20,000 nucleotides of DNA from an uncultured virus (IMG/VR IMGVR_UViG_3300033121_000366) (IMGVR_UViG_3300033121_000366); one strand, 5' to 3'; numbered from the stretch's first letter, positions 1-20,000 are shown. Program-made: numbers and translations. Notes: generated from the letters alone by a model not told the origin.

Positions 1-855
1 CATAACTCTAAATAATTTTTTAATTTCTGCTGGTCTTGTCATATCTTTTTTATCAGCACCACTTAGAGTATCAGCTTTTTCTTTTGAAGTAGAAAGATTA
101 CCTAATGAATCTAAAACAACAAATATTTTTGGCATTTCTCCGCCACTTTTACGTTGAATATTTAATTGTTCTGCAATATTTCTCAATAAGTTTATAGCCA
201 TACTAATATCATCCACTGGTTGATAATCGACCAGTTCTGAATTAATACCAAAACGTTCCATCATATCAATATCAACTGCATTTTCAGTATCTATCCAAAT
301 GATATAATATCCCATTTTTTGGGCTTCTCTGGCAGAATTCAATGCTAAATATGTTTTACCTGTATTGTGTGATGATATACCCATATTATCAAAACCTGTA
401 CCTGCCCAATATCTATGATTTTCATGCTCAACTTCAAAATCATATACTATTTCTTTATCATTATTAGTTACAATATCAATAATTTTTTCTAATCCATTTT
501 TAGTAAGAATATTATCACCTATAGATAATTCATCTGCATGATACCAACCATTATCAGTTTCTATCAAATGATCATTTGAACATGAAAGTTTATTTTTATA
601 ATTTTCTGTAAAAATATTTTTAATAACTCTTTCATTTTTTATCCAAAAATCACCAATTGATTGGTAACCATCAGGTGTATCAATTATTATCTCATCTTCT
701 TTATGATTATAAATTAAATCTTTTATTGGTATTGTTTGTTTATTTTTTTCTATTATACCATAAAAATCATTTTTAATGCAATCTAAATCATGTATAACAT
801 AATGAGGATTATAATATAATATCTCATTCAACATCTCTTGTTCTGTAAAATTCAT
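1..855 (-). CDS. recA: RecA/UvsX recombinase C-terminal fragment preceded by the C-terminal half (IntC) of a split intein; runs off the window edge
   Basis: Not in the ORF track; translated by hand from ATG at 855 (alternative ATG at 834) and open to position 1. Sequence: MNFTEQEML...TIPIKDL...DTPDGYQ...LSCSNDHLIET...IVYDFEVEHENHRYWAG...ISSHN|TGKTYLALNSAREAQKMGYYIIWIDTENAVD...KIFVVLDSLGNL...DMTR. It has intein blocks B, F and G, then the RecA GKT, catalytic DTE and Walker B VVLDS motifs. Confidence 0.93.
   Translation of the reverse strand, partial: MNFTEQEMLNEILYYNPHYVIHDLDCIKNDFYGIIEKNKQTIPIKDLIYNHKEDEIIIDTPDGYQSIGDFWIKNERVIKNIFTENYKNKLSCSNDHLIETDNGWYHADELSIGDNILTKNGLEKIIDIVTNNDKEIVYDFEVEHENHRYWAGTGFDNMGISSHNTGKTYLALNSAREAQKMGYYIIWIDTENAVDIDMMERFGINSELVDYQPVDDISMAINLLRNIAEQLNIQRKSGGEMPKIFVVLDSLGNLSTSKEKADTLSGADKKDMTRPAEIKKLFRVM
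364..855 (-). mobile_element. Split intein C-fragment (long IntC, about 164 aa) of the RecA/UvsX intein
   Basis: Block B SNDH, block F VYDFEV...HRY, terminal His-Asn (367-369, 364-366), followed by Thr+1 (361-363). Confidence 0.9.
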
Positions 856-2092
856 TTTTTATTTCCTTTAATATAAAATTTAATTTATCAAATTTTTCAT
901 AATCATAAATAACATAATATTTATAATTATTGTTTAATGCACAATATTTTTTAAGAGTTTCTTTTTTTATTGTTTCGTAATAATTATCTTTAGAATATGG
1001 ATGTTTCCATACATTTTTTTCATCTTCTGTTAATAGAAGTGATGGATGTACATGCGAGCCATTATATTCTATAATAATTTTTAATTCTGGTATACAAAAA
1101 TCATAAAAATATATTTTATCATCTATATTTAAAAAAATTTCAGAATCTTTATATAAGTATATCAAATCTAAATTTAATTCTTTTATTATAATATCAAAAT
1201 ATTTAACTGATTCGTTTGAATAAAATCTTACATTATTATTTCTAAATTTTTTCAAAGCTATAGATGTTTTTTCTTCTATAGTTTTATTTTTCATTTTTTC
1301 AACCCATTTAGATTGTCTATCATAGAATTTTTTTGTACCTTCAATTTCACCATATTTAAGAATACATTTTTCTAAAGTAAATGTCGATTGTCTATCAATC
1401 AATAATTTATAAGCTTTTTCTATATCATTATCAGCATATTGCATCCAATATTCAAGAGTTGTATTATATTGAATTTTATAATTATGATTTATTTTATTAT
1501 TTTCTTTTCTTGATGCTGAACCTATAGATTGTCTTTTTTTAAGTTGTAATTTAGCTTCATCTATAGTATAAAATATACCAGTAATTGGATTTATTTTATC
1601 TAAAAAATAATCATATCTTAATGATGAACCTTTTTTTAAATTTATATTTTTTATTTCAACATCAGAATATTTAGAATTAAATGTATTATTCATTTTTGTA
1701 TGAATATCATCGTATAATTCTTTTCTTTTTATAATAGCATCATAATAACTCAAAGAGTATTTTTTTTGAATTTTTTCTATACTCAAAGTTTTTTGCAATT
1801 TACTAATCAATTCGGAACCTTCACTAATAGAATAACCTCTATTAATATAAAAATCTATAGATTTATTGGACATTATAGGTTCAAATCCTAATAATCTCAT
1901 ATCAAATCTAGATAATAAAGTTATTTCTTTAGATTTATATTTACCATATAAATCTAAATATTTAACATACTTATCATTTAAAAAATCTAAATTATTAGTA
2001 TTTAATATACTATACATCTTATTTAATTCCTTTACAAAGGAATCAAAAGTTAATGCATAATCATTATCAAAAAATATTTTCTTTCTATTCAT
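824..2092 (-). CDS. Free-standing putative homing endonuclease (Vsr-like/DUF559-type PD-(D/E)xK C-terminal domain) between the two recA halves
   Basis: C-terminal YSNES...FYDFCIPELKIIIEYNGSHVH motif; repeated TLE..(KYG) helical modules; lies between IntN and IntC in a different frame from both. Confidence 0.82.
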   Translation of the reverse strand: MNRKKIFFDNDYALTFDSFVKELNKMYSILNTNNLDFLNDKYVKYLDLYGKYKSKEITLLSRFDMRLLGFEPIMSNKSIDFYINRGYSISEGSELISKLQKTLSIEKIQKKYSLSYYDAIIKRKELYDDIHTKMNNTFNSKYSDVEIKNINLKKGSSLRYDYFLDKINPITGIFYTIDEAKLQLKKRQSIGSASRKENNKINHNYKIQYNTTLEYWMQYADNDIEKAYKLLIDRQSTFTLEKCILKYGEIEGTKKFYDRQSKWVEKMKNKTIEEKTSIALKKFRNNNVRFYSNESVKYFDIIIKELNLDLIYLYKDSEIFLNIDDKIYFYDFCIPELKIIIEYNGSHVHPSLLLTEDEKNVWKHPYSKDNYYETIKKETLKKYCALNNNYKYYVIYDYEKFDKLNFILKEIKNEFYRTRDVE

Positions 2093-2093
2093 A

Positions 2094-2127
2094 TTAACTT
2101 TTTTATTTTATATATTAAAAAAGTTAA
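2094..2127 (-). promoter_or_regulatory. Perfect 12-bp inverted repeat immediately upstream of the endonuclease ATG (probable translation-repressing hairpin)
   Basis: TTAACTTTTTTA (2094-2105) pairs with TAAAAAAGTTAA (2116-2127), 10-nt loop; the stem ends 1 nt from the ATG at 2092. Confidence 0.6.
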
Positions 2128-2136
2128 CCAGAATGT

Positions 2137-2436
2137 CTAGCTTTCAGTATTTATTTTTCTATCTCTTTTCAAAGTTTTCATTATATAACAATCAATTGTT
2201 TCACTACCAGGTAAACATCCACTTTGACCAGCAATCATAGTAACTCTACCTTCTGGTATACCTCTAAAAAGACTTCCAGTTACTTGTGCATTTAATAAAT
2301 AATTACCTAATGGAATCCACGCATTAATTTTACTAAATGGATTATTTTTTAGCACTGAACTTTCTGGATTGATTTTTGTCAAATGATTGCAAAATGTTGC
2401 AAAAGAAAATGGTGCACTTTCTGTTCTTTTAGCCAT
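2137..2436 (-). CDS. recA: RecA/UvsX recombinase N-terminal fragment (73 aa) fused to a very short split intein N-fragment (26 aa)
   Basis: WIPLGNYLLNAQVTGSLFRGIPEGRVTMIAGQSG is the UvsX/RecA segment leading into Walker A; it is followed by intein block A CLPGSETI and a TAG stop 26 codons later. Confidence 0.92.
   Translation of the reverse strand: MAKRTESAPFSFATFCNHLTKINPESSVLKNNPFSKINAWIPLGNYLLNAQVTGSLFRGIPEGRVTMIAGQSGCLPGSETIDCYIMKTLKRDRKINTES
2140..2217 (-). mobile_element. Split intein N-fragment (atypically short IntN, 26 aa)
   Basis: Cys1 (TGT at 2215-2217) begins CLPGSETIDCYIMKTLKRDRKINTES*. Joining the exteins restores G-Q-S-G-T-G-K-T. Confidence 0.87.
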
Positions 2437-2438
2437 AA

Positions 2439-2732
2439 TTATTTCTTTGTATATTGTTCGTTATTAAATGTGCCAATTTTTTTGGCAATGTTATTATATT
2501 TTTCAGTAAGAAACGTGTGTATCAAGCTCTCCATAGCTTCATCTTCTGTATTATAGAATAAACTATACTCATTCATTATAAACCAAAACCATGACTGTTC
2601 TAATGGATGAAAATTTAAATATCCTATAACACCTTTTCTTGATTCTTCTCGAACTATTATAAGTCCGTCATGTATTTTAGCTTTTTCAAATTTTAAGTTT
2701 GAAGTTGGTCCTGTAGTAATTATATTATTCAT
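2439..2732 (-). CDS. Hypothetical protein (97 aa)
   Basis: Tightly packed ORF in the minus-strand operon; no recognised motif. Confidence 0.7.
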   Translation of the reverse strand: MNNIITTGPTSNLKFEKAKIHDGLIIVREESRKGVIGYLNFHPLEQSWFWFIMNEYSLFYNTEDEAMESLIHTFLTEKYNNIAKKIGTFNNEQYTKK

Positions 2733-2929
2733 TTTTTATCATATGTAATAAAACTGTTAGCAATAGAAAAAATAAGGTTAATATTCCCCAAAATGCAAAT
2801 CCACCCCCAAAACGGTAATGTAACATACCACCAAGACCAATCAATAACATTACATAATTTTAAAATTACGAATGCTATACCTAACAAACCAAATATACTT
2901 ATACCAGATTGTGTTATATTTTTACTCAT
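2729..2929 (-). CDS. Small phage membrane protein (LKLxxVIDWSWWxV type), possibly frameshifted near its C-terminus
   Basis: Hydrophobic GLLGIAFVILKLCNVIDWSWWYVTLPFWG motif common in phage small membrane proteins. Confidence 0.75.
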   Translation of the reverse strand: MSKNITQSGISIFGLLGIAFVILKLCNVIDWSWWYVTLPFWGWICILGNINLIFSIANSFITYDKK

Positions 2930-2940
2930 ATATTTTTAAA

Positions 2941-3291
2941 TTAAATTCCTAAATCATCTCTTAAACGTCGTATTTCATCATCTGTATGTTTATTTGCTGC
3001 TATTAGATTAGCATCAATTTTCGCATCTAATTTTTTAATTTCTTTTTTAATATCTTCTATATCAGTTACTAAATTTTCAAATTTATCATCCACCGCAGTG
3101 AATTTAGTATTCATTTGACCATTCAAATCAGAAATTTTCGTATTTATATATGATATAATCCAATTTATAAAAATAATTATATCCTTTATTAAGGGGCCAA
3201 TATATGCACTTGGATATTTTTTATCGGCACCATCACCTTCGGTTATCGGTTTATATTTTGTTAAAAAATCATCGACATTGAAATTTTCCAT
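2941..3291 (-). CDS. Hypothetical coiled-coil protein (116 aa)
   Basis: Heptad-like C-terminal half (ISDLNGQM...IEDIKKEIKKLDAKI); operon packing. Confidence 0.7.
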   Translation of the reverse strand: MENFNVDDFLTKYKPITEGDGADKKYPSAYIGPLIKDIIIFINWIISYINTKISDLNGQMNTKFTAVDDKFENLVTDIEDIKKEIKKLDAKIDANLIAANKHTDDEIRRLRDDLGI

Positions 3292-3299
3292 AACACTTA

Positions 3300-4088
3300 T
3301 TATTTTTTATACATTGCATCATCTATATAATAATCTTCTACTGTTGGTATGTTTACTTGTACATAATCCGATATTTTTTGTTTAAATAAATCTATATTTT
3401 TATCAGTTTCATCTGTTTTGATTATAGATTTAATAATAAAATTACAAGTTGTAAATTTATTTTTAATTATTTCAATATCAGAAATAGATTCGAAACCTGT
3501 ATAATGATATAATATATTTACTTTTTTACCAGTATTCAATTTATATTTATTACAATAATTAACAATCTTTTGTAATCTTAAATATAAGATACCATGATTT
3601 TTAAACATATCATTTCTATCTTTATCATTCAAAGATGTTATATTGAAAAATAAATTAAAATCTTTATATTTTAAAGACATATTTAAAATTCTACTTAAAA
3701 TATCTGGATATTCTACTCCAACAGTATAAAGATTAAATGTAAAATTTAAATTTTTACAATACTCTACAAATCTTTCAACCTCTACCCAATTCATCATTGG
3801 TTCACCACTACATAAATTATCAATTTCTACTCTTGAATATTTTTCATTTGTATTTTTAACAGAATCCAAAACAGTATTTAATTGCTGTTTCATTTCATCT
3901 AATGTTAAATTTCTATAAAAGGAATTACCAAACTTACAATATTTACAACCTATAACACATCCTGATTGTACAGATATTGATATTTTTAATGTATCATTAA
4001 CAATATAAGCAAATGATGTATTATTTTGTTTTTTTTCTATATCTAAAATTACTGGTTTAATAATTTCATTATTTTTATTGAGATTCAT
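3300..4088 (-). CDS. Radical SAM protein of RlmN/Cfr-like ancestry, divergent (likely start ATG at 4088 rather than 4205)
   Basis: ISISVQSGCVIGCKYCKFG (CxxxCxxC with RlmN-like SxQxGC lead-in), RNLTLDEM..Q and GEPMMN. A start at 4088 avoids a long overlap with the upstream ORF. Confidence 0.78.
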   Translation of the reverse strand: MNLNKNNEIIKPVILDIEKKQNNTSFAYIVNDTLKISISVQSGCVIGCKYCKFGNSFYRNLTLDEMKQQLNTVLDSVKNTNEKYSRVEIDNLCSGEPMMNWVEVERFVEYCKNLNFTFNLYTVGVEYPDILSRILNMSLKYKDFNLFFNITSLNDKDRNDMFKNHGILYLRLQKIVNYCNKYKLNTGKKVNILYHYTGFESISDIEIIKNKFTTCNFIIKSIIKTDETDKNIDLFKQKISDYVQVNIPTVEDYYIDDAMYKK

Positions 4089-4350
4089 TTTGAATTTTTT
4101 TAATATTTTTAAGAATAGATGTTTTATCATTTCTGTATTCTCTTTTAAAGATTTCAAATTTATCATTTGAAATCTTATAGTCCTTTTTAAAGTCTTTAAA
4201 TTCAATAGACATATCTATAATAATTTTTAACATTTTTTGCTGTTGTTCATCATTATATGATATATAATTAGATAATATCTTTCTAGTTCTATATAAAGTA
4301 TAAAGAATATAAAATATTATAAATATTAATATTATATCTATGTATGTCAT
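4075..4350 (-). CDS. Hypothetical protein with an N-terminal membrane anchor
   Basis: IDIILIFIIFYILYTLY hydrophobic segment followed by a charged helical region. Confidence 0.7.
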   Translation of the reverse strand: MTYIDIILIFIIFYILYTLYRTRKILSNYISYNDEQQQKMLKIIIDMSIEFKDFKKDYKISNDKFEIFKREYRNDKTSILKNIKKIQNESQ

Positions 4351-4353
4351 ATT

Positions 4354-5328
4354 TTAAAATAAAGTTTTAACAGATACTAAATTGTATGGTATTTTTGGTT
4401 TACCTAATGCTTCCATAAATCTATTTATAGGATCTAAAATACAGTTAGAAAACATTAAATCATAATCGAAATTTGGAGCTATTTCTGCTGGAAAATTACC
4501 TTGTGCGTAGCCAAAAACTTCCCAAGATTTTGATTCATCTTTAACATAATAATATTTTATTTTGTTACCAGATTTTATCAAATTATACTTACTTTTATAT
4601 TTGGAATTATTTAATTTATAATTATGTATTGCGGCAGCTTTTACATGAATTGGACATTTTGATTCTAGTTCTAAACCATTTCTATCATTCAAAACATATT
4701 TTTCATAATCATTAACATTTCTAGATAAAGAAATGTTTTCAATATTTTGTAATTTAAAATCAGATTTCAATGCTTTTATTTTATTCATAAAAACAGTTGT
4801 ATCAAAATTCTTACCCTTTTCAATAATAAATTTTATTAAACTGAATAATGATTCCCTGGCAAATGTTGGATAAGAAGATTGAGAAGTTTCAATACCTTTG
4901 GTATATATTTTTTGCTGTGGTTTATAATAAATACCATTTTCACCACCATCTTTCCATGCCATATCCAACACATATTTTTTCTTAGAAGTCCATATACCAG
5001 CATATGATATAGATTCCATTTCAAACTCGTGCAAATTTTCTGTATTCCATTTTTTTGCATATTTCTCATGCATTTTAATAAAATAATCATTTAATCTGTG
5101 TTTATAAACTAAACGGATGAATTCTATAGGATCTATTTTACCATTTTTCCATTCAATGACAGAATCATATGCTTCTTCGAATGATACATAACTAGAATTA
5201 TGTACAAGTATATCATTAGCTATAAATGTATGTGTATCATCATTAATTTCTAAATCATATACATATTCATCTTCAAAATTACCTATACATTCACAACTCT
5301 CAACATCATCAAAATAATATTCAATCAT
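4354..5328 (-). CDS. polB: Family B DNA polymerase C-terminal fragment (palm/thumb) preceded by a 44-aa split intein IntC
   Basis: YVYDLEI...HTFIANDILVHN|SSYVSF (intein blocks F/G), then FEME, KKKYVL, TKGIETSQSS and PIHVKAA, which are T4 gp43-like C-terminal motifs. Confidence 0.93.
   Translation of the reverse strand: MIEYYFDDVESCECIGNFEDEYVYDLEINDDTHTFIANDILVHNSSYVSFEEAYDSVIEWKNGKIDPIEFIRLVYKHRLNDYFIKMHEKYAKKWNTENLHEFEMESISYAGIWTSKKKYVLDMAWKDGGENGIYYKPQQKIYTKGIETSQSSYPTFARESLFSLIKFIIEKGKNFDTTVFMNKIKALKSDFKLQNIENISLSRNVNDYEKYVLNDRNGLELESKCPIHVKAAAIHNYKLNNSKYKSKYNLIKSGNKIKYYYVKDESKSWEVFGYAQGNFPAEIAPNFDYDLMFSNCILDPINRFMEALGKPKIPYNLVSVKTLF
5197..5328 (-). mobile_element. Split intein C-fragment (IntC, 44 aa) of the PolB intein
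   Basis: Own ATG; ends in VHN with Asn at 5197-5199; Ser+1 at 5194-5196. Confidence 0.92.
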
Positions 5329-6464
5329 TTTATACCTAAAGTATTATTTATAAAATCTTTAATATTTAATTTAGGAACATCAGATTCCCAAATAATATAA
5401 GTTGTTATACCATATTCTTCTTTTAGAGCAGAATATCTAAAATTATCTTTTTCCCAAAGTTCACAAGCTTTAATATCTTTATTTAAAATCTTTAATAGAG
5501 GCATATCATTGGCTTCAAATATTTTAGGATTTCCATGAAATAAATCACCATTATATTCTATACATATATTCAAATCTGATATATAAAAATCTAAACTTAT
5601 AATCTTTTTTAAGGATTTTAATAGTATTCTTTTTTCTTTATTTTTTAAAGAATAATAAATATCTGTTATATTATATTTTTTTAATTCTGATTCTAATTTT
5701 TTAAAAAATATTTTTGATTGTTTTGAAACCGGCTGATATTTTCTATTTGAACAAGCTTCCAATTTTTTAGATAACATATTATAATATTTTTCTTCACCTA
5801 TTTCCTTACCATAAGTTTCTATGAAATATTCATATGTTATACCAGCAGTTCTTTGTTTTTCTATATAATCATTAAATATTTTTTCACCTTTAATATCACC
5901 ATGTCTTTTTTTACAATTATCTAATGTTATGGATCTTGATAAATTATATTCTTCAAATTGTTCTTTTGACCAACCATATTTATCTTTTTTATATTCGAAT
6001 GTGTTGGTTTCAGATTGTTTACTACAATAATTATTCCATACTTTTAAACCTTCATCATTACCATATTTTTTAATCATATTATCTAATGTCATGGCATAAC
6101 GGTCTCTTGAATTAAGAAAATCAACATCTGAAATATCAAATGCAAATTTTGTCATATCAGACATTATATTATATACCTTAGTTTTATTGATATTTTTATA
6201 ATTTTCAAAAGTATATTCCATACAAGATTGGCAAACTGTTAAATTATATTCTTTATCATTAATTATTTTACAAGTTTTATATGTTGTACCACCATATTTA
6301 AATTCCTTTGTTTTTTTATTATAACGTACAATAGTATTATCATAATATATTACATCATTGCACAATCTACATTGTGTAGCTGTATGATCAACATACATTT
6401 GTAAATTTTTAAATGTATTTTTATTTTTATCAATCCTGAACTGTTTTATTAATTCTAATAACAT
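5325..6464 (-). CDS. Free-standing putative homing endonuclease (Vsr-like/DUF559-type) between the two polB halves
   Basis: N-terminal CRLC...CQSC zinc-ligand pairs, repeated TLxxxxKKYG..G modules, C-terminal SKQS...LDFYISDLNICIEYNGDLFHG...WEKD..R...IIWESD. Its TGA overlaps the polB-C ATG (ATGA at 5325-5328). Confidence 0.85.
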   Translation of the reverse strand: MLLELIKQFRIDKNKNTFKNLQMYVDHTATQCRLCNDVIYYDNTIVRYNKKTKEFKYGGTTYKTCKIINDKEYNLTVCQSCMEYTFENYKNINKTKVYNIMSDMTKFAFDISDVDFLNSRDRYAMTLDNMIKKYGNDEGLKVWNNYCSKQSETNTFEYKKDKYGWSKEQFEEYNLSRSITLDNCKKRHGDIKGEKIFNDYIEKQRTAGITYEYFIETYGKEIGEEKYYNMLSKKLEACSNRKYQPVSKQSKIFFKKLESELKKYNITDIYYSLKNKEKRILLKSLKKIISLDFYISDLNICIEYNGDLFHGNPKIFEANDMPLLKILNKDIKACELWEKDNFRYSALKEEYGITTYIIWESDVPKLNIKDFINNTLGIK

Positions 6465-6500
6465 ATATAATCATTATTTTTTATTATAATGTTATATATG
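6462..6500 (-). promoter_or_regulatory. Hairpin that base-pairs the endonuclease start codon
   Basis: On the + strand CATATATAA (6462-6470) pairs with TTATATATG (6492-6500), and CATTAT (6472-6477) with ATAATG (6486-6491), with one bulge and an 8-nt loop. The ATG (6462-6464) is inside the stem. Confidence 0.6.
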
Positions 6501-6517
6501 CTGATACAGGATAAAAA

Positions 6518-7231
6518 TTATTTTAAAACTAAAATTTTGTCTGTTTTTAATATTTCACATGGTTTAACTTCTAGTTTTTCACCATCTCTAAATACTATCA
6601 TTGAATGATCATTTGTCATTATTATTTCTTTACCAGACTTTGTTTTTAATTTCCATTTAGATTTATTAACTTTGTGCCTTATAATTTTAGATACTTCAAC
6701 TTCTTTTATATCATTATTTTTAGTATAATTTAAAACTTTAAATGAAGTATTTTGTACAATTTCATGACCAAAAGAATCTATTATAAAACCTTCAAGTTTA
6801 GAAAATTCTTCCCATATAAACCAGACTGGTAATTTAATATCATTACTAATATTAATCAATGTATCAAAATTCACACTGTCGGTATCACCATATTTAACAG
6901 CATCACCTGTTAATTGATGTAACACTTTTATACCTAGTTTATCATGCAATTCTTTATCTAAGTGCCATTTTTCTTTAAAGTAATTATTAATGGAGTTAAT
7001 AGCATACATTAATAAATCTTGACCTTGTGTAGTTATAGCTTCTGCTACATCTGTATTATAACATTGAAAATATTGATTACCAATAGCACCATATGCAGAA
7101 TTAATAAAAATCTTTAATGCCATTTGTAAATTTTCATTATCATCTTTAATTTTTTTTAATCTTATTATTTCTTGTTTTATTTCATCTATCGATGAATTAT
7201 TGGGGTCTATATTACAATATTTTAATTTCAT
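6518..7231 (-). CDS. polB: Family B DNA polymerase middle fragment (fingers motif B to motif C) fused to a 119-aa split intein IntN
   Basis: QMALKIFINSAYGAIGNQYF (KxxxNSxYG), AEAITTQGQ and KYGDTD, then intein block A SVNFDTLI and block B IIMTNDHSMIV, ending in a stop. Confidence 0.93.
   Translation of the reverse strand: MKLKYCNIDPNNSSIDEIKQEIIRLKKIKDDNENLQMALKIFINSAYGAIGNQYFQCYNTDVAEAITTQGQDLLMYAINSINNYFKEKWHLDKELHDKLGIKVLHQLTGDAVKYGDTDSVNFDTLINISNDIKLPVWFIWEEFSKLEGFIIDSFGHEIVQNTSFKVLNYTKNNDIKEVEVSKIIRHKVNKSKWKLKTKSGKEIIMTNDHSMIVFRDGEKLEVKPCEILKTDKILVLK
6521..6877 (-). mobile_element. Split intein N-fragment (IntN, 119 aa, Ser1) of the PolB intein
   Basis: Ser1 (AGT at 6875-6877) directly after YGDTD; TxxH block B (TNDH). 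Splicing restores YGDTDSSYV. Confidence 0.9.
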
Positions 7232-7242
7232 ATTAATTTAAT

Positions 7243-7275
7243 AAAAAATAGGGAGTAAAAAATACTCCCTATTTT
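7243..7275 (-). terminator. Stem-loop followed by a U-tract (rho-independent terminator-like) between the clamp and polB genes
   Basis: AAAATAGGGAGTA (7245-7257) pairs with TACTCCCTATTTT (7263-7275), 5-nt loop; on the minus strand the GC core is followed by a T run. Confidence 0.7.
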
Positions 7276-7288
7276 ATTTAAGAAAACA

Positions 7289-8101
7289 TTATTCATCATC
7301 ACCAGTAACCGCACCAAATGATATATTTGTTTCAGTTTGTGAACTTTTAAAGACTATTTTACCATCATTAATATAAATTTTATATTCCTCTTTATCCAAA
7401 TATTTTAAATAATCCTTTTGGATAGTAATACTTGTATTTGGTTCTGATACATCAACCGACGTATCACATTTCCATTTACTATTTTTAGTAATAAAGAATA
7501 ATTCATTATCATCTTGATCACCGACCAATTTAATTTCTATATTTGATCCCTTTTCAACCGATGTAATCAATTCTAATTTTTTAAGATGAATAGTATCAAA
7601 ATCGAAAGAAAAATTACTATCATCTGTATGAAATACTTTATCAAGTACATCATTTGCTATATGTTTAAATAGTTTTTTACTGGAGCATTTAAAATTGTAA
7701 TTTAAATCTTTATTATAAACATTTACAGATGTTGCAACATATTCATCCTCATCATCTTTTTCATAGAAAATATCTAAAAACACATCAGTAGAACCCTCTG
7801 AAACTATACCAATCATCTTTATGAAAGTTTCTACAAAATAAATGCCAATTTTAATATTTTCTGTTATAGGTGTTTCTTTATCATCAAAGTCAAAAATATC
7901 TACCAAATTTAAAGAACCTACTTTTACAGCTGCTCTATTAGCGGTAAATGATTTGATAACTATTGTATTATTAGTTTTTAATTCTAATAAAGCATTTGCT
8001 TCAACAACTATAAATTTTTTCAAAAAATCCATAAATGTTGAAGCACTTAGGATATTAAATGTAAGTTGTTTTGTTGTGTTTACTTGTGTATTTTTTGCCA
8101 T
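7289..8101 (-). CDS. Probable DNA polymerase sliding clamp (T4 gp45/PCNA-like); likely start ATG at 8101
   Basis: About 270 aa, acidic, alternating strand/helix pattern with two similar halves (FMDFLKKF...; KIGIYFVETFIKMI), directly upstream of polB. Inferred from context and pattern only. Confidence 0.6.
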   Translation of the reverse strand: MAKNTQVNTTKQLTFNILSASTFMDFLKKFIVVEANALLELKTNNTIVIKSFTANRAAVKVGSLNLVDIFDFDDKETPITENIKIGIYFVETFIKMIGIVSEGSTDVFLDIFYEKDDEDEYVATSVNVYNKDLNYNFKCSSKKLFKHIANDVLDKVFHTDDSNFSFDFDTIHLKKLELITSVEKGSNIEIKLVGDQDDNELFFITKNSKWKCDTSVDVSEPNTSITIQKDYLKYLDKEEYKIYINDGKIVFKSSQTETNISFGAVTGDDE

Positions 8102-8138
8102 TTTATGGACTTTCAATATAGTTTAACAATTTATAAGT

Positions 8139-11623: not shown

Positions 11624-13414
11624 TTATTTTATAGATAACCATTTTTTACGTAAATTGGCATTATTACCAAAAACAATTGTTAATATTTTATCAGAATATT
11701 CATCAGGAGACATTCGTTCTAATGTTAGATTTGTAAATATGTATTCCCAATCCTTTAGATCATTACTACCAAGACCTTTTAAATAACGAGCATTTGTTTT
11801 ATTTGTTTCTTTTGAAAAATCATCCAAAGAATAATAATATTTTCTTTTACCCTTCATTTCAATTGAAACTAATGGTGTAATTAATTTATAAAGTTTACCT
11901 TGTTTAATAATATTTGGAAACCATTTATTAAAAAAGTTAAGTATTAATGATGCTATATGGTTACCATCAACATCACCATCCGTTGCAATTATTATTCTTT
12001 TATATTTTACATCTGAACCTTTATCTTCTAAATTCAAATTTAAAATATTTATCAGGTCAATTATTTCAACATTGGATGATAAATCTGATATACTTTTTAC
12101 ATTTTTTAATTTACCACGCAATGTATAAACTGCATCAACATTTGGATCTCTTTTTTGTAAAATAGAACCTCTTGCAGAATTACCTTCTACTAAATATAAA
12201 TTTTCTTTCCTTTGACTTGGAAAATACTTATCTGATATTTTTTTTGAATTTTTTCTAGCCTTTTTTAATTTACTCATCTCCTCTTTTTTAAGAGTATTTT
12301 CAATATCATTATTGACTATATTATACCATTCAGATTCTTTTATTTGTTTAATTTCTTTATCAGGTATGTCAAATTGTAAAACGCCATTTAATTCATTTCT
12401 TGTAGAAGAAAATTTCGTTTTATTTTGGTCTGCAAATTTGACATTTTTAGGAGGTAGGTTTAAAACCATCAAAGTTTCATATAAATAATGCGCTTTATCA
12501 TAATCAAAAACTTTATCATTTATAATTTCTTGCATCATTTTTTGATGTATACCTGTACACATAGAACCATTAACAAATGATACGCTTGTAGAATTCTCTG
12601 TGGTCTGCCAAGTATATACCTTTAACGAATTACTATTTTTAATTAATAATCGTTCTTTAGGCATGAAAGGAACGTCTAGATTTACTAATACATCATCAAT
12701 ATAGAATTTAAAATCTAAATTAGAAATAAACTCATCATCTTTTTTGAGCATATTTCTAAATATCATATTAGTGGTTAATAATTCTAAATCCCATAAACTA
12801 TCAAAAATATCAAATCTAGGTATAAATATAACTTTTGTACCAGGTTTAAAAGTACCATATTCGGTTTCCGATTCTATAGTTTCAAATTTAGCCCAAGTAT
12901 GTTTATACTTGTATTTACCGTCACCAGTTTCAACAGAAAATAATTCTGATAAAACATTAACAACCGAAGAGCCTACACCATTTGTACCAATTAAATTCGA
13001 TTCTTCATTATCATTATTAAAATTAGAACCAGCTCTTAATTGTGAAAATGCAGTTACTATATTATTAAGTCCTGTTTTTTCATTGATATCTAAACCTTTA
13101 TAAAATCCTCGTCCATTATCTTCAACTGAAACAAGATTGTGGGATGTATCTATTCTTACTTCAATTTTACCTTTATAAGTTGGCTTTAATTGATAAAGAT
13201 GTTTTAATTCATCAAAAGAATTATCAACTATTTCACCAAATAATTTATGCATACCTATAGAAAAAACTTTATTTTTTAAAATAAGTTCATTATTTTCTAT
13301 AATTGGTATTTTTTCTTCAGTTTGATCAATTGATCCAACATACATCGAGGGTCTTAACAAGATGTGACTTTTATCATCTAGGGCTACAATTTCCCTTTTA
13401 TTTTTAGATGCCAT
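11624..13414 (-). CDS. Type IIA DNA topoisomerase, ATPase/TOPRIM subunit (GyrB/ParE; T4 gp39+gp60-like in one ORF)
   Basis: HILLRPSMYVGS, EIVDNSFDE, DNGRG, GTNGVGSS (GHKL motifs); LVEGNSA, LRGK, TDGDVDG, RYLKGLGS (TOPRIM motifs). Confidence 0.95.
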   Translation of the reverse strand: MASKNKREIVALDDKSHILLRPSMYVGSIDQTEEKIPIIENNELILKNKVFSIGMHKLFGEIVDNSFDELKHLYQLKPTYKGKIEVRIDTSHNLVSVEDNGRGFYKGLDINEKTGLNNIVTAFSQLRAGSNFNNDNEESNLIGTNGVGSSVVNVLSELFSVETGDGKYKYKHTWAKFETIESETEYGTFKPGTKVIFIPRFDIFDSLWDLELLTTNMIFRNMLKKDDEFISNLDFKFYIDDVLVNLDVPFMPKERLLIKNSNSLKVYTWQTTENSTSVSFVNGSMCTGIHQKMMQEIINDKVFDYDKAHYLYETLMVLNLPPKNVKFADQNKTKFSSTRNELNGVLQFDIPDKEIKQIKESEWYNIVNNDIENTLKKEEMSKLKKARKNSKKISDKYFPSQRKENLYLVEGNSARGSILQKRDPNVDAVYTLRGKLKNVKSISDLSSNVEIIDLINILNLNLEDKGSDVKYKRIIIATDGDVDGNHIASLILNFFNKWFPNIIKQGKLYKLITPLVSIEMKGKRKYYYSLDDFSKETNKTNARYLKGLGSNDLKDWEYIFTNLTLERMSPDEYSDKILTIVFGNNANLRKKWLSIK

Positions 13415-13506
13415 TTTATTTACAGAAATACATTGTTGTTCTAAAAAAGAATATTAATTATTTAATATATAAATTATACAATATAACTAAAAAAAAGTTT
13501 AATATC

Positions 13507-14580
13507 ATGAATAAAAAAGAATTAGTAGAATTTATTGATAATATCTTAAAAACTAAGAGTAGATCATCATTAATGGGAATTATTAGGAATAATATAGATA
13601 TAAGAGAATTAATTCTAAAATATACAATTGAATTGGATAATTCTACAATGTCACAAAGATGTTGGCACATTTATTATGGTATAAAGGATAAACCTCTGTG
13701 TAAGCAATGTAATTTAAATATACCAACTTTCCAGAAAAATAATTGGAATTATTCCGATTGTTGTTCTTTAACATGTTCTGGATTATATACTCTTGAAAAA
13801 AAGAAACAAAAAAATTTACAACTGTATGGTGTTGATAATTATTCAAAAACGGACGAATGTAAAGAAAAGAGAAAACAAACATGTTTAAAAAAATATGGAG
13901 TAGAACATTCATTTCAATCTAACAACAATAAAGAGAAAACAAAACAAACATATTTAGAAAAATATGGAGTTGATCATTTTTCAAAAACAGATGAATTTAA
14001 AGAAAAACATAAACAAACATGTTTAGAAAAATATGGAGTTGATCATCAATCTAAAGCTAATGAAGTTAAAAATAAAATTAAACAAACATGTTTAGAAAGA
14101 TATGGAGTTAATAGTGGATTTGATATAAATAGAATTCAAAATTTACAATATAGAATAAAAACATGGATTAAAAAATATGGTGTTGAAAATCCCATGCAAA
14201 ATTGTGAAATATCGGATAAAAGTTTTCATAATGGATTTAAATATAAATCATATACTTTACCATCTGGTAAAGAAGTTAAAATTCAAGGTTATGAAGATAA
14301 ATTTTTATATGAATATTTTTCAAATGGTTATTCGGAATCTAATATTTTAATTGAAAATAAAGATATAGAGAAATATTTAGGTAAAATCTGGTATAATACC
14401 AAAGATGGTAAGAAACACAGATATTATCCAGATGCTTTTTTAATAGAAGAAAATAAGATTATAGAAGTAAAATCAATATGGACTATAAAAATAAATCCCG
14501 AGGTACAAGAATTAAAAAAACAAGCTTGTTTAGATAACGGCTTAAATTTTGAATATAAAATATACAAATATGAAGATTAA
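13507..14580 (+). CDS. Free-standing putative homing endonuclease with zinc-finger, 23-aa KYGV repeats and a C-terminal PD-(D/E)xK domain (likely start ATG at 13507; the ORF extends back to 13408)
   Basis: CKQC...CCSLTC; tandem KQTCLEKYGVDH repeats; QGYE...RYYPDAFLIEENKIIEVKS. The only convincing plus-strand gene; its stop overlaps the clpP stop (TTAA at 14577-14580). Confidence 0.82.
   Translation: MNKKELVEFIDNILKTKSRSSLMGIIRNNIDIRELILKYTIELDNSTMSQRCWHIYYGIKDKPLCKQCNLNIPTFQKNNWNYSDCCSLTCSGLYTLEKKKQKNLQLYGVDNYSKTDECKEKRKQTCLKKYGVEHSFQSNNNKEKTKQTYLEKYGVDHFSKTDEFKEKHKQTCLEKYGVDHQSKANEVKNKIKQTCLERYGVNSGFDINRIQNLQYRIKTWIKKYGVENPMQNCEISDKSFHNGFKYKSYTLPSGKEVKIQGYEDKFLYEYFSNGYSESNILIENKDIEKYLGKIWYNTKDGKKHRYYPDAFLIEENKIIEVKSIWTIKINPEVQELKKQACLDNGLNFEYKIYKYED
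13804..14220 (+). repeat. Coding tandem repeats with a 69-bp (23-aa) period inside the plus-strand endonuclease
   Basis: KQKNLQLYGVDN / KQTCLKKYGVEH / KQTYLEKYGVDH / KQTCLEKYGVDH / KQTCLERYGVNS, plus a more distant IKTWIKKYGVEN. Confidence 0.85.
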
Positions 14581-18881: not shown

Positions 18882-20000
18882 TTACATTTTATACATATAT
18901 GCATCTCTTATTTCTATATAAGTTTCCATATCAGCTAATGACCATTGCCAAGTTATACCTATATCTTTAGTAACTGTAAAATTAGGATTTACTATTCTAA
19001 CTGTACTAAAACTATCAGTTGTTATAGCAGCTGTTGTTAAACTTGTACTAGTTGCTGGTATAGAATCTGATGATGTAAATAATAATAAATCTGAACCATC
19101 TCTATAAGCAACTAATCCTCTTACTGTATAACCTATTGTTGGACTTGATGTTACTGATGCCGAATTTAATAATGTTATAGTATCAGAACCATAATAAAAT
19201 TTTATAGTTACAGTTACAGTACTTCCGGAAAAATTTCTATGTTTTGCATTAAATCCCATAGCTATAAATTCACCAGATTGCCAAGAATTACCTGTAATTG
19301 ATTGAAATATTAAACTATCTTCTGATGTACTATTTTGAGAACCACCAAGCATGGTGAATGTATATTTTGTAATAACACTCGTACCACTTGTACCAGATGA
19401 TCCAGAAGAACCTGATGTGCCAGAACTACCAGAAAAGCCACTCGAACCACTTGAACCACTTGAACCACTTGAACCACTTGAACCACTTAAACCAGGTACT
19501 CCTTGTGGACCATTTGTTCCACTTGTACCAGAACTACCATGAGTTGATCCAGAAGAACCTGACGTTCCATGTAATCCTTGTATTCCATTTGTTCCACTTG
19601 TTCCACTTGTACCTGAACTACCATCAGTTGATCCAGAAGAACCCGAAGTACCTGAGCTACCAGAAGAACCATCAATACCTTTTGATCCACTTGTACCTGA
19701 ACTACCAGAAGAACCACTTAAACCGGATGTACCAGAAGTTCCTGCTGTACCTGAACTACCAGAAGAACCATCGATACCTGGTACACCATTTGTACCTGAA
19801 GTTCCTGCTGTACCAGAACTACCAGAAGAACCATCAATACCTTTTGATCCACTTGTACCTGAACTACCAGAAGAACCATCTGTTCCAGAGGTTCCACTTG
19901 TACCTGTAATTCCAGATGAACCACTTGGACCAGTTGGACCAGTTGGGGCATATATTAATGGTCCAGTTGGTCCAGTTGGTCCAATTATACCAGGTGTACC
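18882..20000 (-). CDS. Collagen-like Gly-X-Y (Ser/Thr-rich) fibre protein, 3' part; starts outside the window
   Basis: The frame of ORF 18882-19352 continues upstream to the edge: GTPGIIGPTGPTGP...GSSGITGTSGTSGTDGSSGSSGTSG...GTSVITKYTFTMLGG, then a beta-rich C-terminal domain. Confidence 0.85.
   Translation of the reverse strand, partial: GTPGIIGPTGPTGPLIYAPTGPTGPSGSSGITGTSGTSGTDGSSGSSGTSGSKGIDGSSGSSGTAGTSGTNGVPGIDGSSGSSGTAGTSGTSGLSGSSGSSGTSGSKGIDGSSGSSGTSGSSGSTDGSSGTSGTSGTNGIQGLHGTSGSSGSTHGSSGTSGTNGPQGVPGLSGSSGSSGSSGSSGSSGFSGSSGTSGSSGSSGTSGTSVITKYTFTMLGGSQNSTSEDSLIFQSITGNSWQSGEFIAMGFNAKHRNFSGSTVTVTIKFYYGSDTITLLNSASVTSSPTIGYTVRGLVAYRDGSDLLLFTSSDSIPATSTSLTTAAITTDSFSTVRIVNPNFTVTKDIGITWQWSLADMETYIEIRDAYMYKM
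19383..20000 (-). repeat. Gly-X-Y coding repeat tract
   Basis: 9-bp periodicity; GAACCACTT x5 at 19444-19488; identical 60-bp blocks at 19657-19716 and 19819-19878. Confidence 0.9.

Follow-up and report, generated by a model that had tools for sequence, protein, structure and literature searches.

Introduction

Fractured genes, as described by Dassa and co-workers in 2009, comprise 26 loci in eight host enzymes, are of phage origin and are associated with a family of Vsr-like endonucleases (PMC2677866). In that report the layout consists of three open reading frames (ORFs) on the same strand, namely an N-extein followed by the N-terminal intein fragment (IntN), an endonuclease gene, and the C-terminal intein fragment (IntC) followed by the C-extein. 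Here we analyze a stretch of 20,000 nucleotides (nt) from an uncultured virus (IMG/VR IMGVR_UViG_3300033121_000366), which we call the window and count from its first letter. It contains two such loci, one in the recombinase gene uvsX and one in the 43B part of a family-B DNA polymerase gene, with all parts on the minus strand and the two fractures about 7 kb apart. We interpret them as two independently fractured genes of a single T4-like phage, each arising from the invasion of a mini-intein by a Vsr-like homing endonuclease gene, and assign a probability of roughly 0.88 to this reading.

Close relatives of both inteins have been described. The PolB1 intein of the T4-like Aeromonas phage Aes123 (120 + 39 amino acids, aa) has been characterised and engineered, and the structure 9HTH was deposited with that work (PMC11923092). 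GenBank record JN377899 of this phage annotates gp43A, gp43B1 with an N-intein, a putative VSR endonuclease and gp43B2 with a C-intein. In phage PTm1 (AP019524) the corresponding genes are annotated as an "intein-containing split DNA polymerase precursor", a "VSR endonuclease" and a "DNA polymerase". Atypically split inteins are also known, including VidaL, PolB16, AceL TerL and GOS TerL (PMC13014065, PMC10189870). Thus, the layout, the model and both intein types are already in print or in GenBank, and both loci reported here are of kinds already described.

An atypically split intein in uvsX

The uvsX N-extein (2218..2436; residues 1-73; phrog_97 UvsX-like recombinase, E 1.8e-7) ends in the first half of the Walker A motif (GQSG) and runs directly into a 26-aa IntN (2140..2217), whose Cys1 has its first base at 2217 and which is closed by a stop codon at 2137..2139. 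Together they form an ORF of 99 aa (2137..2436). A non-coding spacer of 44 nt (2093..2136) separates this ORF from ENDO1, a free-standing gene of 422 aa between the uvsX halves (824..2092). The IntC of 164 aa (364..855), whose start overlaps the end of ENDO1 by 32 nt, ends in SSHN and is followed at position 363 by Thr+1, which with GKT forms the second half of Walker A at the beginning of the C-extein (1..363; phrog_97, E 3.8e-19). The C piece leaves the window; in an identical contig its full length is 485 aa (L004:10474-11931; L numbers denote contigs and loci of our collection).

Removal of the 26 + 164 intein residues restores the Walker A sequence as GxxG-TGKT and yields a predicted UvsX of 394 aa. 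At the same point, the intact UvsX of the uncultured phage LR756500 reads GPSGTGKT. All splicing residues are present, namely Cys1, the block B His (..SNDH..), the terminal SSHN and Thr+1. The IntC matches VidaL (PDB 6vgv_A) over residues 32-151 (120 residues, E 1.5e-18) and has weak Pfam matches to PT-HINT and Intein_splicing; its relatives are also found in PhoH, AAA+ and DnaB-type proteins. The IntN has a core, C-L-x-x-x-E-x-[IV]-x-x-Y-I-[LM]-K, that is common to the N pieces of L006, L011, L012 and L014 and to contiguous inteins. Its first 11-15 residues alone align to the contiguous relatives, and the remainder is a variable tail.

By its sequence, the uvsX intein belongs to the atypically split kind, having a small N part, Cys1 and Thr+1. 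Like VidaL, to which its IntC is homologous, it depends on Cys and has its break shortly after the second strand (PMC13014065). It differs from VidaL in having an N fragment of 26 rather than 16 aa, the variable tail being extra, and a longer C fragment (164 aa) with a helical N-terminal extension. The length of 26 aa falls in the range of about 15-37 aa of VidaL-type N fragments. VidaL probably comes from a uvsX gene of a Lake Vida metagenome, an origin that a literature search on VidaL and UvsX did not confirm.

A canonically split intein in the polymerase gene

The second fractured gene encodes the 43B part of the polymerase, beginning just before motif B. Its N-extein (6878..7231; residues 1-118; PF00136, E 1.4e-12; phrog_27191, E 1.7e-24) contains motif B and ends in motif C with ..YGDTD. 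It is followed by an IntN of 119 aa (6521..6877; PF14890, Intein_splicing, E 2e-8), whose Ser1 has its first base at 6877, and by a stop codon at 6518..6520; the N piece is thus an ORF of 237 aa (6518..7231). Next come a non-coding spacer of 53 nt (6465..6517) and ENDO2, a free-standing gene of 379 aa between the 43B halves (5325..6464). The C piece (4354..5328) overlaps ENDO2 by 4 nt, its start codon and the ENDO2 stop codon being interlocked in ATGA, and consists of an IntC of 44 aa ending in VHN (5197..5328; PF14890 positions 118-155, E 2.4e-4) and a C-extein of 280 aa with Ser+1 (SSYVSF..) and the thumb region (4354..5196; phrog_262 DNA polymerase, E 5e-39). The predicted 43B chain after splicing has 398 aa.

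At this site, the sequence is DTDSAYISF in the intein-less allele of L005 and DTDSVYLNM in that of Aeromonas phage SW69-9. Therefore, the intein starts at the Ser after DTD, and Ser+1 restores DTDS-x-Y. The contiguous relative L015 has Thr at intein position 1, which suits a nucleophile better than a conserved extein Ser. Ser1, the block B His (..TNDH..), VHN and Ser+1 are all present, and the block H-T-F-I-A-N-D-I-L-V-H-N-S is invariant in the three aligned polymerase IntC sequences. All aligned relatives of the two inteins in the window retain position 1, block B His, terminal HN and the nucleophile at +1. The catalytic positions of the polymerase intein are Ser, and its cysteines (one in IntN, two in IntC) are all non-catalytic. 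Judged from these residues, the intein is cysteine-independent at best, not cysteine-less.

The polymerase IntN matches the Aes123 PolB1-derived intein (9hth_A) with E 7.6e-11. According to an alignment with gp43B1 and gp43B2, the two inteins are inserted identically, at DTD|S of motif C, and both have Ser1 and Ser+1; the Aes123 C piece matches 43B of SW69-9 from residue 110 on. Both are canonically split (120 + 39 aa there, 119 + 44 aa here), and both phages have a three-piece polymerase (43A, 43B1 and 43B2) with a homologous endonuclease in the gap. The intein of the window is nevertheless divergent, since IntN residues 44-116 alone align to 9hth, and it differs further in its non-catalytic cysteines, in a 43A gene that is not adjacent and in the host lineage. 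PTm1 shares with the window the split intein (65% identity over the last 86 IntN residues), an ENDO2-family endonuclease and the order of the parts; it differs in the position of 43A, which is found two genes upstream and separated by another Vsr-type endonuclease gene. A tblastn search of phage records with the polymerase IntN alone returned PTm1, PTm5 and LR756500, and Aes123 was found via the extein. In Aeromonas phages 25, 31 and 44RR, 43B begins at the same point before motif B; unlike here it has no intein, and the chains are reported to co-purify and to work unligated.

Together, these assignments bear out the proposal of an earlier note, made on this DNA from the sequence alone, that two split inteins of different architecture lie here, one split early with Cys1/Thr+1 (26 + 164 aa) and one split late with Ser1/Ser+1 (119 + 44 aa). 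The limits it gave agree with these assignments to the base: the uvsX IntC has its last base at 364, and the polymerase IntN has its first at 6877.

Both loci have the organization of the fractured genes in the 2009 report, with N-extein and IntN, endonuclease gene, and IntC and C-extein in three ORFs on one strand. The gaps before the endonuclease genes are 44 and 53 nt here and 27-51 nt there, and the overlaps between endonuclease and IntC are 32 and 4 nt here and 6-69 nt at 15 loci there (PMC2677866). Two of these four values (53 nt and 4 nt) lie just beyond the published ranges. The very short N part of the uvsX locus also has a counterpart in one of the published loci (a terminase). Hairpins are present in the endonuclease leaders of both loci here, as in the 2009 report, but lack the late-promoter word that many of the published ones hold. 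Further differences are that the eight host enzymes listed there include neither uvsX nor family-B polymerase (PMC2677866), and that here two loci lie 7 kb apart in one genome.

The free-standing genes encode predicted Vsr-like nucleases

ENDO1 consists of a helical N-terminal region and a Vsr-like nuclease domain (residues 284-422, nt 827..1243). In ENDO2, a four-Cys domain at the N terminus and helical repeats of the KYG type are combined with a Vsr-like nuclease domain (residues 242-379, nt 5328..5741). Structures of both were modeled with AlphaFold2, with a mean confidence (pLDDT) of 93.0 for ENDO1 and 89.9 for ENDO2. The ENDO1 model superimposes on Vsr with Z 10.0 (1cw0; 116 aa, 4.7 Å) and on I-Bth0305I with Z 9.6 (3r3p_B; 94 of 98 residues, root-mean-square deviation 2.5 Å). 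The corresponding values for ENDO2 are Z 10.1 to 1cw0 (130 aa, 3.6 Å), 9.4 to 1vsr and 8.7 to I-Bth0305I (3r3p_A; 94 of 97 residues, 3.1 Å). Foldseek E-values of the whole models are weak (0.013-0.6), and the fold assignment rests on these second-look Z scores.

Conserved residues are D331, E342, H349 and D378 in ENDO1 and D292, E303, H310 and D340 in ENDO2. In the family alignments, which hold 51 ENDO1 sequences (the query and 50 picked from 150 listed representatives) and 56 ENDO2 sequences (the query and 55 picked from 120 listed proteins), the Asp, Glu, His and a Gly are invariant and the final Asp nearly so (at least 90%). The spacing of the four residues (+11, +7, +29/30) equals that of Vsr D51, position 62, H69 and D97; the match to Vsr is taken from this spacing rather than from a residue-level superposition. 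D51, H69 and D97 with an extra Glu at position 62 are given in the 2009 report as the signature of Vsr-like homing endonucleases (PMC2677866). Like the intron-encoded I-Bth0305I, both ENDO proteins have a C-terminal Vsr-like catalytic domain with Asp/His/Asp and an acidic residue at Vsr position 62, and a separate N-terminal region presumed to bind DNA (PMC3239194). They differ in that I-Bth0305I has NUMOD-type motifs, whereas ENDO1 and ENDO2 have K-Y-G helical repeats, with the four-Cys domain in addition in ENDO2. Their His-to-Asp spacing of 29-30 is like that of Vsr (28) and unlike that of I-Bth0305I (9) (PMC3239194).

We found 1651 cluster representatives homologous to ENDO1 at E ≤ 1e-3, and 132 homologues of ENDO2 among 4757 candidate proteins at the same threshold. 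Pfam matches among the 56 ENDO2-family sequences are to MTES_1575 (4) and DUF559 (2). On the evidence of the models, ENDO1 and ENDO2 are Vsr-like (EDxHD-type) nucleases.

The nuclease-domain models also match the RAP domain of human FASTKD4 (9gek, Z 8.3) and proteins with helical repeats from apicomplexan and ciliate mitoribosomes (Z 7.2-9.5). Here too, helical repeats are combined with a Vsr-like domain.

Allele states in related phages

To survey relatives, we collected 40 loci from IMG/VR with motifs internal to IntC. A scan with a single protein for polymerase relatives gave two loci, and a query built from an alignment was used instead. At the polymerase site, the intein is contiguous at 10 of the 40 loci and split at 26. 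The split loci comprise 13 with an intact ENDO2-family ORF, one with fragments only of such an ORF (L023), four with a different, Vsr-type endonuclease gene (L016, L018, L028 and L030) and eight in which 19-210 nt separate the halves and an endonuclease gene is absent. Three further loci show only IntC, and one has no intein. On the contiguous inteins, the IntN and IntC of the window cover adjoining stretches that are about two residues apart; therefore, the split lies at the canonical endonuclease insertion point. Weaker endonuclease remnants occur in L012 and L006.

The endonucleases in the gaps of L016, L018 and L028 are alike, and that of L016 matched DUF723 and a treble-clef zinc finger. 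L030 has in its gap the 567-aa ORF that also occupies the polymerase intein gap of LR756500 and that has matches to DUF7487 and MTES_1575. Thus, at one fixed split point of the polymerase intein, at least three endonuclease architectures with a Vsr-like nuclease are found, of the ENDO2, DUF7487 and DUF723/zinc-ribbon types. The polymerase intein gap of L023 also contains, on the opposite strand, an ORF of 397 aa (3843..5036, minus strand) beside two decayed ENDO2-family fragments, and its sequence looks like an IS200/IS605-type TnpB.

In a metagenome contig (L045, 3992..5647) and in three protein clusters (P0096, P0103 and P0118), the 43B N part, IntN and an ENDO2-family endonuclease are joined in one frame. 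These fusions have 548-551 aa (translation table 11), and IntN replaces the four-Cys domain. In L045, 43A lies directly upstream of the fusion, and IntC with the C-extein follows with an ATGA overlap. No such fusion was found in the viral contigs. By its arrangement, the fusion may be an intermediate between a free-standing gene and an intein-embedded domain. If it is functional, the excised intein complex would be the two-chain equivalent of an endonuclease-bearing intein.

The uvsX gene is in view at 12 of the 40 loci. Three have a split intein with an ENDO1-family gene, two a split intein without one (gaps of 17 and 399 nt), one a contiguous intein and six no P-loop intein, three of the six being broken further downstream. 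Contiguous uvsX inteins occur in L008 and in the database proteins P0312 (which stands for 36 member sequences), P0327 and P0347. The sequences flanking the cut can be aligned between L008 (contiguous) and L006 (split), which have between them 20 nt in the former and 1249 nt holding the endonuclease gene in the latter.

Contiguous mini-inteins, for which the earlier note had suggested a survey of related genomes, thus exist for both genes. Its further proposal that insertion of an endonuclease split each intein is supported by these contiguous alleles and by the clean insertion of about 1.25 kb that distinguishes L006 from L008. Allele states of uvsX and of the polymerase gene occur in all combinations, and their histories are therefore independent. 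The series of states in relatives supports, at the level of sequence comparison, an independent invasion of both genes.

Other breaks and inteins were observed in uvsX. The three genes without a P-loop intein but broken further downstream are those of L009 (9877..12507), L010 and L015, and the downstream gap in L009 contains a different Vsr-type endonuclease ORF of 334 aa. Seven UvsX proteins (P0279, P0289, P0297, P0310, P0322, P0328 and P0347) carry a second or third contiguous intein at a GGG|C site. In this group of phages, the gene looks like a hot spot for inteins.

Leader hairpins of the endonuclease genes

The uvsX spacer can form a 13-bp hairpin directly 5' of the ENDO1 start codon (-11.6 kcal/mol, z -3.4), and the polymerase spacer a hairpin that pairs the ENDO2 start codon (-14.0 kcal/mol, z -3.8); in neither case was any of 200 shuffled sequences as stable. 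From this folding analysis, a hairpin across the start region probably restrains translation of the endonucleases. For a wider view, 15 distinct leaders, including the two of the window, were folded against mononucleotide shuffles. The z values of the uvsX-site leaders were -2.6 (the window's own), -6.0 and -7.1.

A small conserved stem-loop of the form GATA-loop-TATC, within ..AGAGATAAAAGTATC.., was observed in seven ENDO2-family leaders (L021, L022, L025, L029, L036, L037 and L039). It lies about 10-15 nt 5' of the start codon and is unlike the long hairpin of the window's own leader.

A model for the two fractured genes

We then propose a model for the origin and function of these loci. A mini-intein would first have settled in a catalytic motif of an essential gene, Walker A in uvsX and motif C in 43B. 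A free-standing gene for a Vsr-like (EDxHD-type) homing endonuclease would then have invaded the intein coding sequence, with the insertion providing the front half with a stop codon and the back half with a start codon. Four polypeptides would be made from the two genes, and the cognate intein fragments would associate and join the exteins by protein trans-splicing. The products would be a UvsX of 394 aa and a 43B chain of 398 aa, and the latter would have to pair with a separately encoded 43A. The endonucleases may cut alleles that lack them in co-infecting relatives and be copied in through recombinational repair, and their translation would probably be limited by the hairpin over the start region. 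The anatomy of the loci, the homology to characterised inteins, the nuclease fold with its conserved residues and the natural allele series were established above; splicing, DNA cleavage, homing and translational control are what we infer from them.

Several results weigh against this reading. Neither ENDO1 nor ENDO2 matches any Pfam family, and PDB sequence searches with either protein, by single sequence and by profile, returned nothing relevant at E ≤ 1, neither Vsr nor I-Bth0305I. Therefore, the nuclease assignment rests on predicted structures and motif spacing. The candidates for the first Glu of the EDxHD motif, E318 in ENDO1 and E277 in ENDO2, are conserved in at least 90% of sequences, but they lie 13-15 residues before the Asp instead of 26; the corresponding residue is E170 in I-Bth0305I and E25 in Vsr (PMC3239194). 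No 43A, the part with the exonuclease and N-terminal domains, was found in the window or, in searches with PF03104 and with the PTm1 43A protein, in two partial IMG/VR records; it lies 0-2 kb upstream of 43B in PTm1, L011, L012, L014 and L045. The shares of allele states are biased to intein carriers by the use of IntC motifs in collecting the 40 loci, which also include near-duplicates (L019/L020, L025/L026 and L040-L042). Strong hairpins are not general, with z ≤ -3.5 in two of three uvsX-site leaders and two of 12 polymerase-site leaders. The T4 late-promoter word TATAAATA, found in many leader hairpins of the fractured genes of 2009 (PMC2677866), is lacking in both spacers here, and in the window it occurs 13 times with 14 expected.

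Kinship of the endonucleases and alternative explanations

The two endonucleases are related, and their motifs in common, which the earlier note had pointed out, are present in both ORFs. Both also match the same family, phrog_22677. Aligned directly, the proteins are 30% identical over 149 aa (E 1e-6), and a comparison of the two family profiles gives a match of 99.7% probability (hhalign; E 9.5e-27, 251 columns). Together with the Vsr-like folds, this leaves no sign that the intervening ORFs are unrelated or not nucleases. The common motifs and family could be explained by a recent duplication of one endonuclease gene in this genome that seeded both sites. Such an event is very improbable, however, given an identity of a mere 30% and the presence of a four-Cys N-terminal domain in ENDO2 and none in ENDO1. 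ENDO2 is also far nearer to the putative VSR endonuclease of Aes123 (31% over 344 aa, E 6e-43) than to ENDO1. We further built a maximum-likelihood tree from 37 nuclease-domain sequences trimmed to about 200 residues, with five duplicate loci omitted. In this tree, ENDO1 groups with the uvsX-site endonucleases of L006 and L014 and seven metagenome representatives (100/100 support), and all 13 ENDO2-family genes from polymerase sites lie on the side opposite to this clade. Judging from these sequences, ENDO1 and ENDO2 are two old lineages of one superfamily rather than an element spread within this genome, and each lineage is bound to its own target gene, as expected of site-specific homing enzymes. 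The earlier suggestion that one endonuclease family invaded two inteins independently is therefore right as to homology and independence, and needs amending in that the two are not close kin and fall in separate, target-tied clades.

Other alternatives concern the state of the inteins and of the endonucleases. If the inteins were dead, the halves of UvsX and 43B would act as non-covalent two-chain enzymes, like Aeh1 NrdA or the 43A/43B polymerase of phage 25. Unligated split phage enzymes of this kind are documented (PMC2988022, PMC3045599), and this polymerase already needs such a 43A-43B assembly. We consider this unlikely, since every splicing residue is present and conserved across relatives at 35-65% identity, the close homologues VidaL and Aes123 PolB1 splice in vitro (PMC13014065, PMC11923092), and a loose end with an intein stub within Walker A or motif C would hardly be tolerated. 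We hold it to be just as improbable that the split state is adaptive and that trans-splicing, as the post-translational timer which the earlier note had envisaged, delays or gates active UvsX and polymerase and thereby times recombination-dependent replication. In its favor, both targets have roles in replication and recombination and are found on one strand at a distance of 7 kb, and split alleles without an endonuclease persist (L010, L011, L012, L032 and L040-L042), so that the split is tolerated without homing drive. However, relatives carry all other states in all combinations, as selfish independent elements predict, and the intein-less, contiguous and endonuclease-less alleles among them suggest that the phages can do without the split. 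Splicing takes characterised relatives seconds to minutes (PMC13014065), a brief delay for a timer, and no regulatory feature specific to the halves was found. A somewhat better, though still low, chance falls to the possibility that the inteins splice while one or both endonuclease genes are inactive as homing enzymes, either decaying or repurposed. Decay is seen in relatives, in the fragments of L023, the remnants in L012 and L006 and the endonuclease-less splits, and would fit the usual life cycle of homing genes; in the window, both ORFs are full length, keep all D/E/H/D positions and have confidently predicted folds. We thus favor two independent invasions of mini-inteins by homing endonuclease genes.

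Possible orthogonality and significance

No similarity was detectable between the two inteins (E 1.3; no alignment), and they are cut at different points of the fold. For these reasons it is plausible, from sequence, that they are mutually orthogonal, as the earlier note had expected. A combination of the uvsX IntN with the polymerase IntC would miss most of the HINT domain, and cross-splicing therefore looks unlikely. Split inteins that have a short N fragment or are cysteine-independent are sought after as tools (PMC13014065, PMC10189870). This phage offers one of each, and both have to share a cell, which makes the pair a reasonable candidate for mutual orthogonality.

These loci leave unchanged the understanding of how such elements work. 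They provide an unusually complete natural series for the gene-breaking model, from intact gene through contiguous intein, invaded intein and decayed invader to empty split, and the series is seen at two genes that change independently. An oddity is that one of the two targets is UvsX, the recombinase on which T4-type homing repair depends. It is tempting to speculate, and this is no better than a tentative suggestion, that the phage group is a live record of the merging and parting of endonucleases and inteins and that the two inteins are a naturally proven orthogonal pair.

Genomic context

The G+C content of the window is 22-26%, and the minus strand carries nearly every gene. The gene content is that of a T4-like replication module, with topoisomerase II subunits, PhoH, a ClpP-like protease, a dNMP kinase, UvsX and a family-B polymerase. 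Bases 1-7300 are present at 100% identity in two partial IMG/VR records; therefore, the arrangement is no assembly accident of a single contig. By polymerase similarity, the nearest annotated relatives are the uncultured 462-kb phage LR756500, the Tenacibaculum phages PTm1 and PTm5 and the Prevotella Lak phages; the hosts of the nearest annotated relatives are Bacteroidota. In an 80-kb related record, no inteins or endonucleases of the ENDO1 or ENDO2 family were found beyond the two inteins and two endonucleases described. A sigma-70 scan gave 105 promoter-like sites with 85 expected, which in DNA of 22% G+C is as uninformative as the terminator scan.

Between the polymerase and uvsX genes lies a gene for a radical SAM protein (3300..4205, minus strand; PF04055, E 1.1e-8). 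The sole large gene on the plus strand (13408..14580), flanked by the gene for the topoisomerase large subunit and the ClpP-like gene, is a third free-standing endonuclease-like ORF of 390 aa. Besides a match to DUF7487 (E 3e-55), it shows a PD..E.K-like stretch at the C terminus and tandem K-Y-G-V repeats that are similar to the K-Y-G modules in ENDO1, ENDO2 and the 567-aa endonuclease of LR756500. Upstream of the polymerase N piece, an ORF of 275 aa (7289..8116, minus strand) has no family match and, judged from its position, might encode a sliding clamp. At the end of the window (18882..20000, minus strand), an ORF encodes long collagen-like Gly-X-Y repeats (PF01391, E 5e-28), which bring the local G+C content up to 39%, and the product is probably a fibre or decoration protein.

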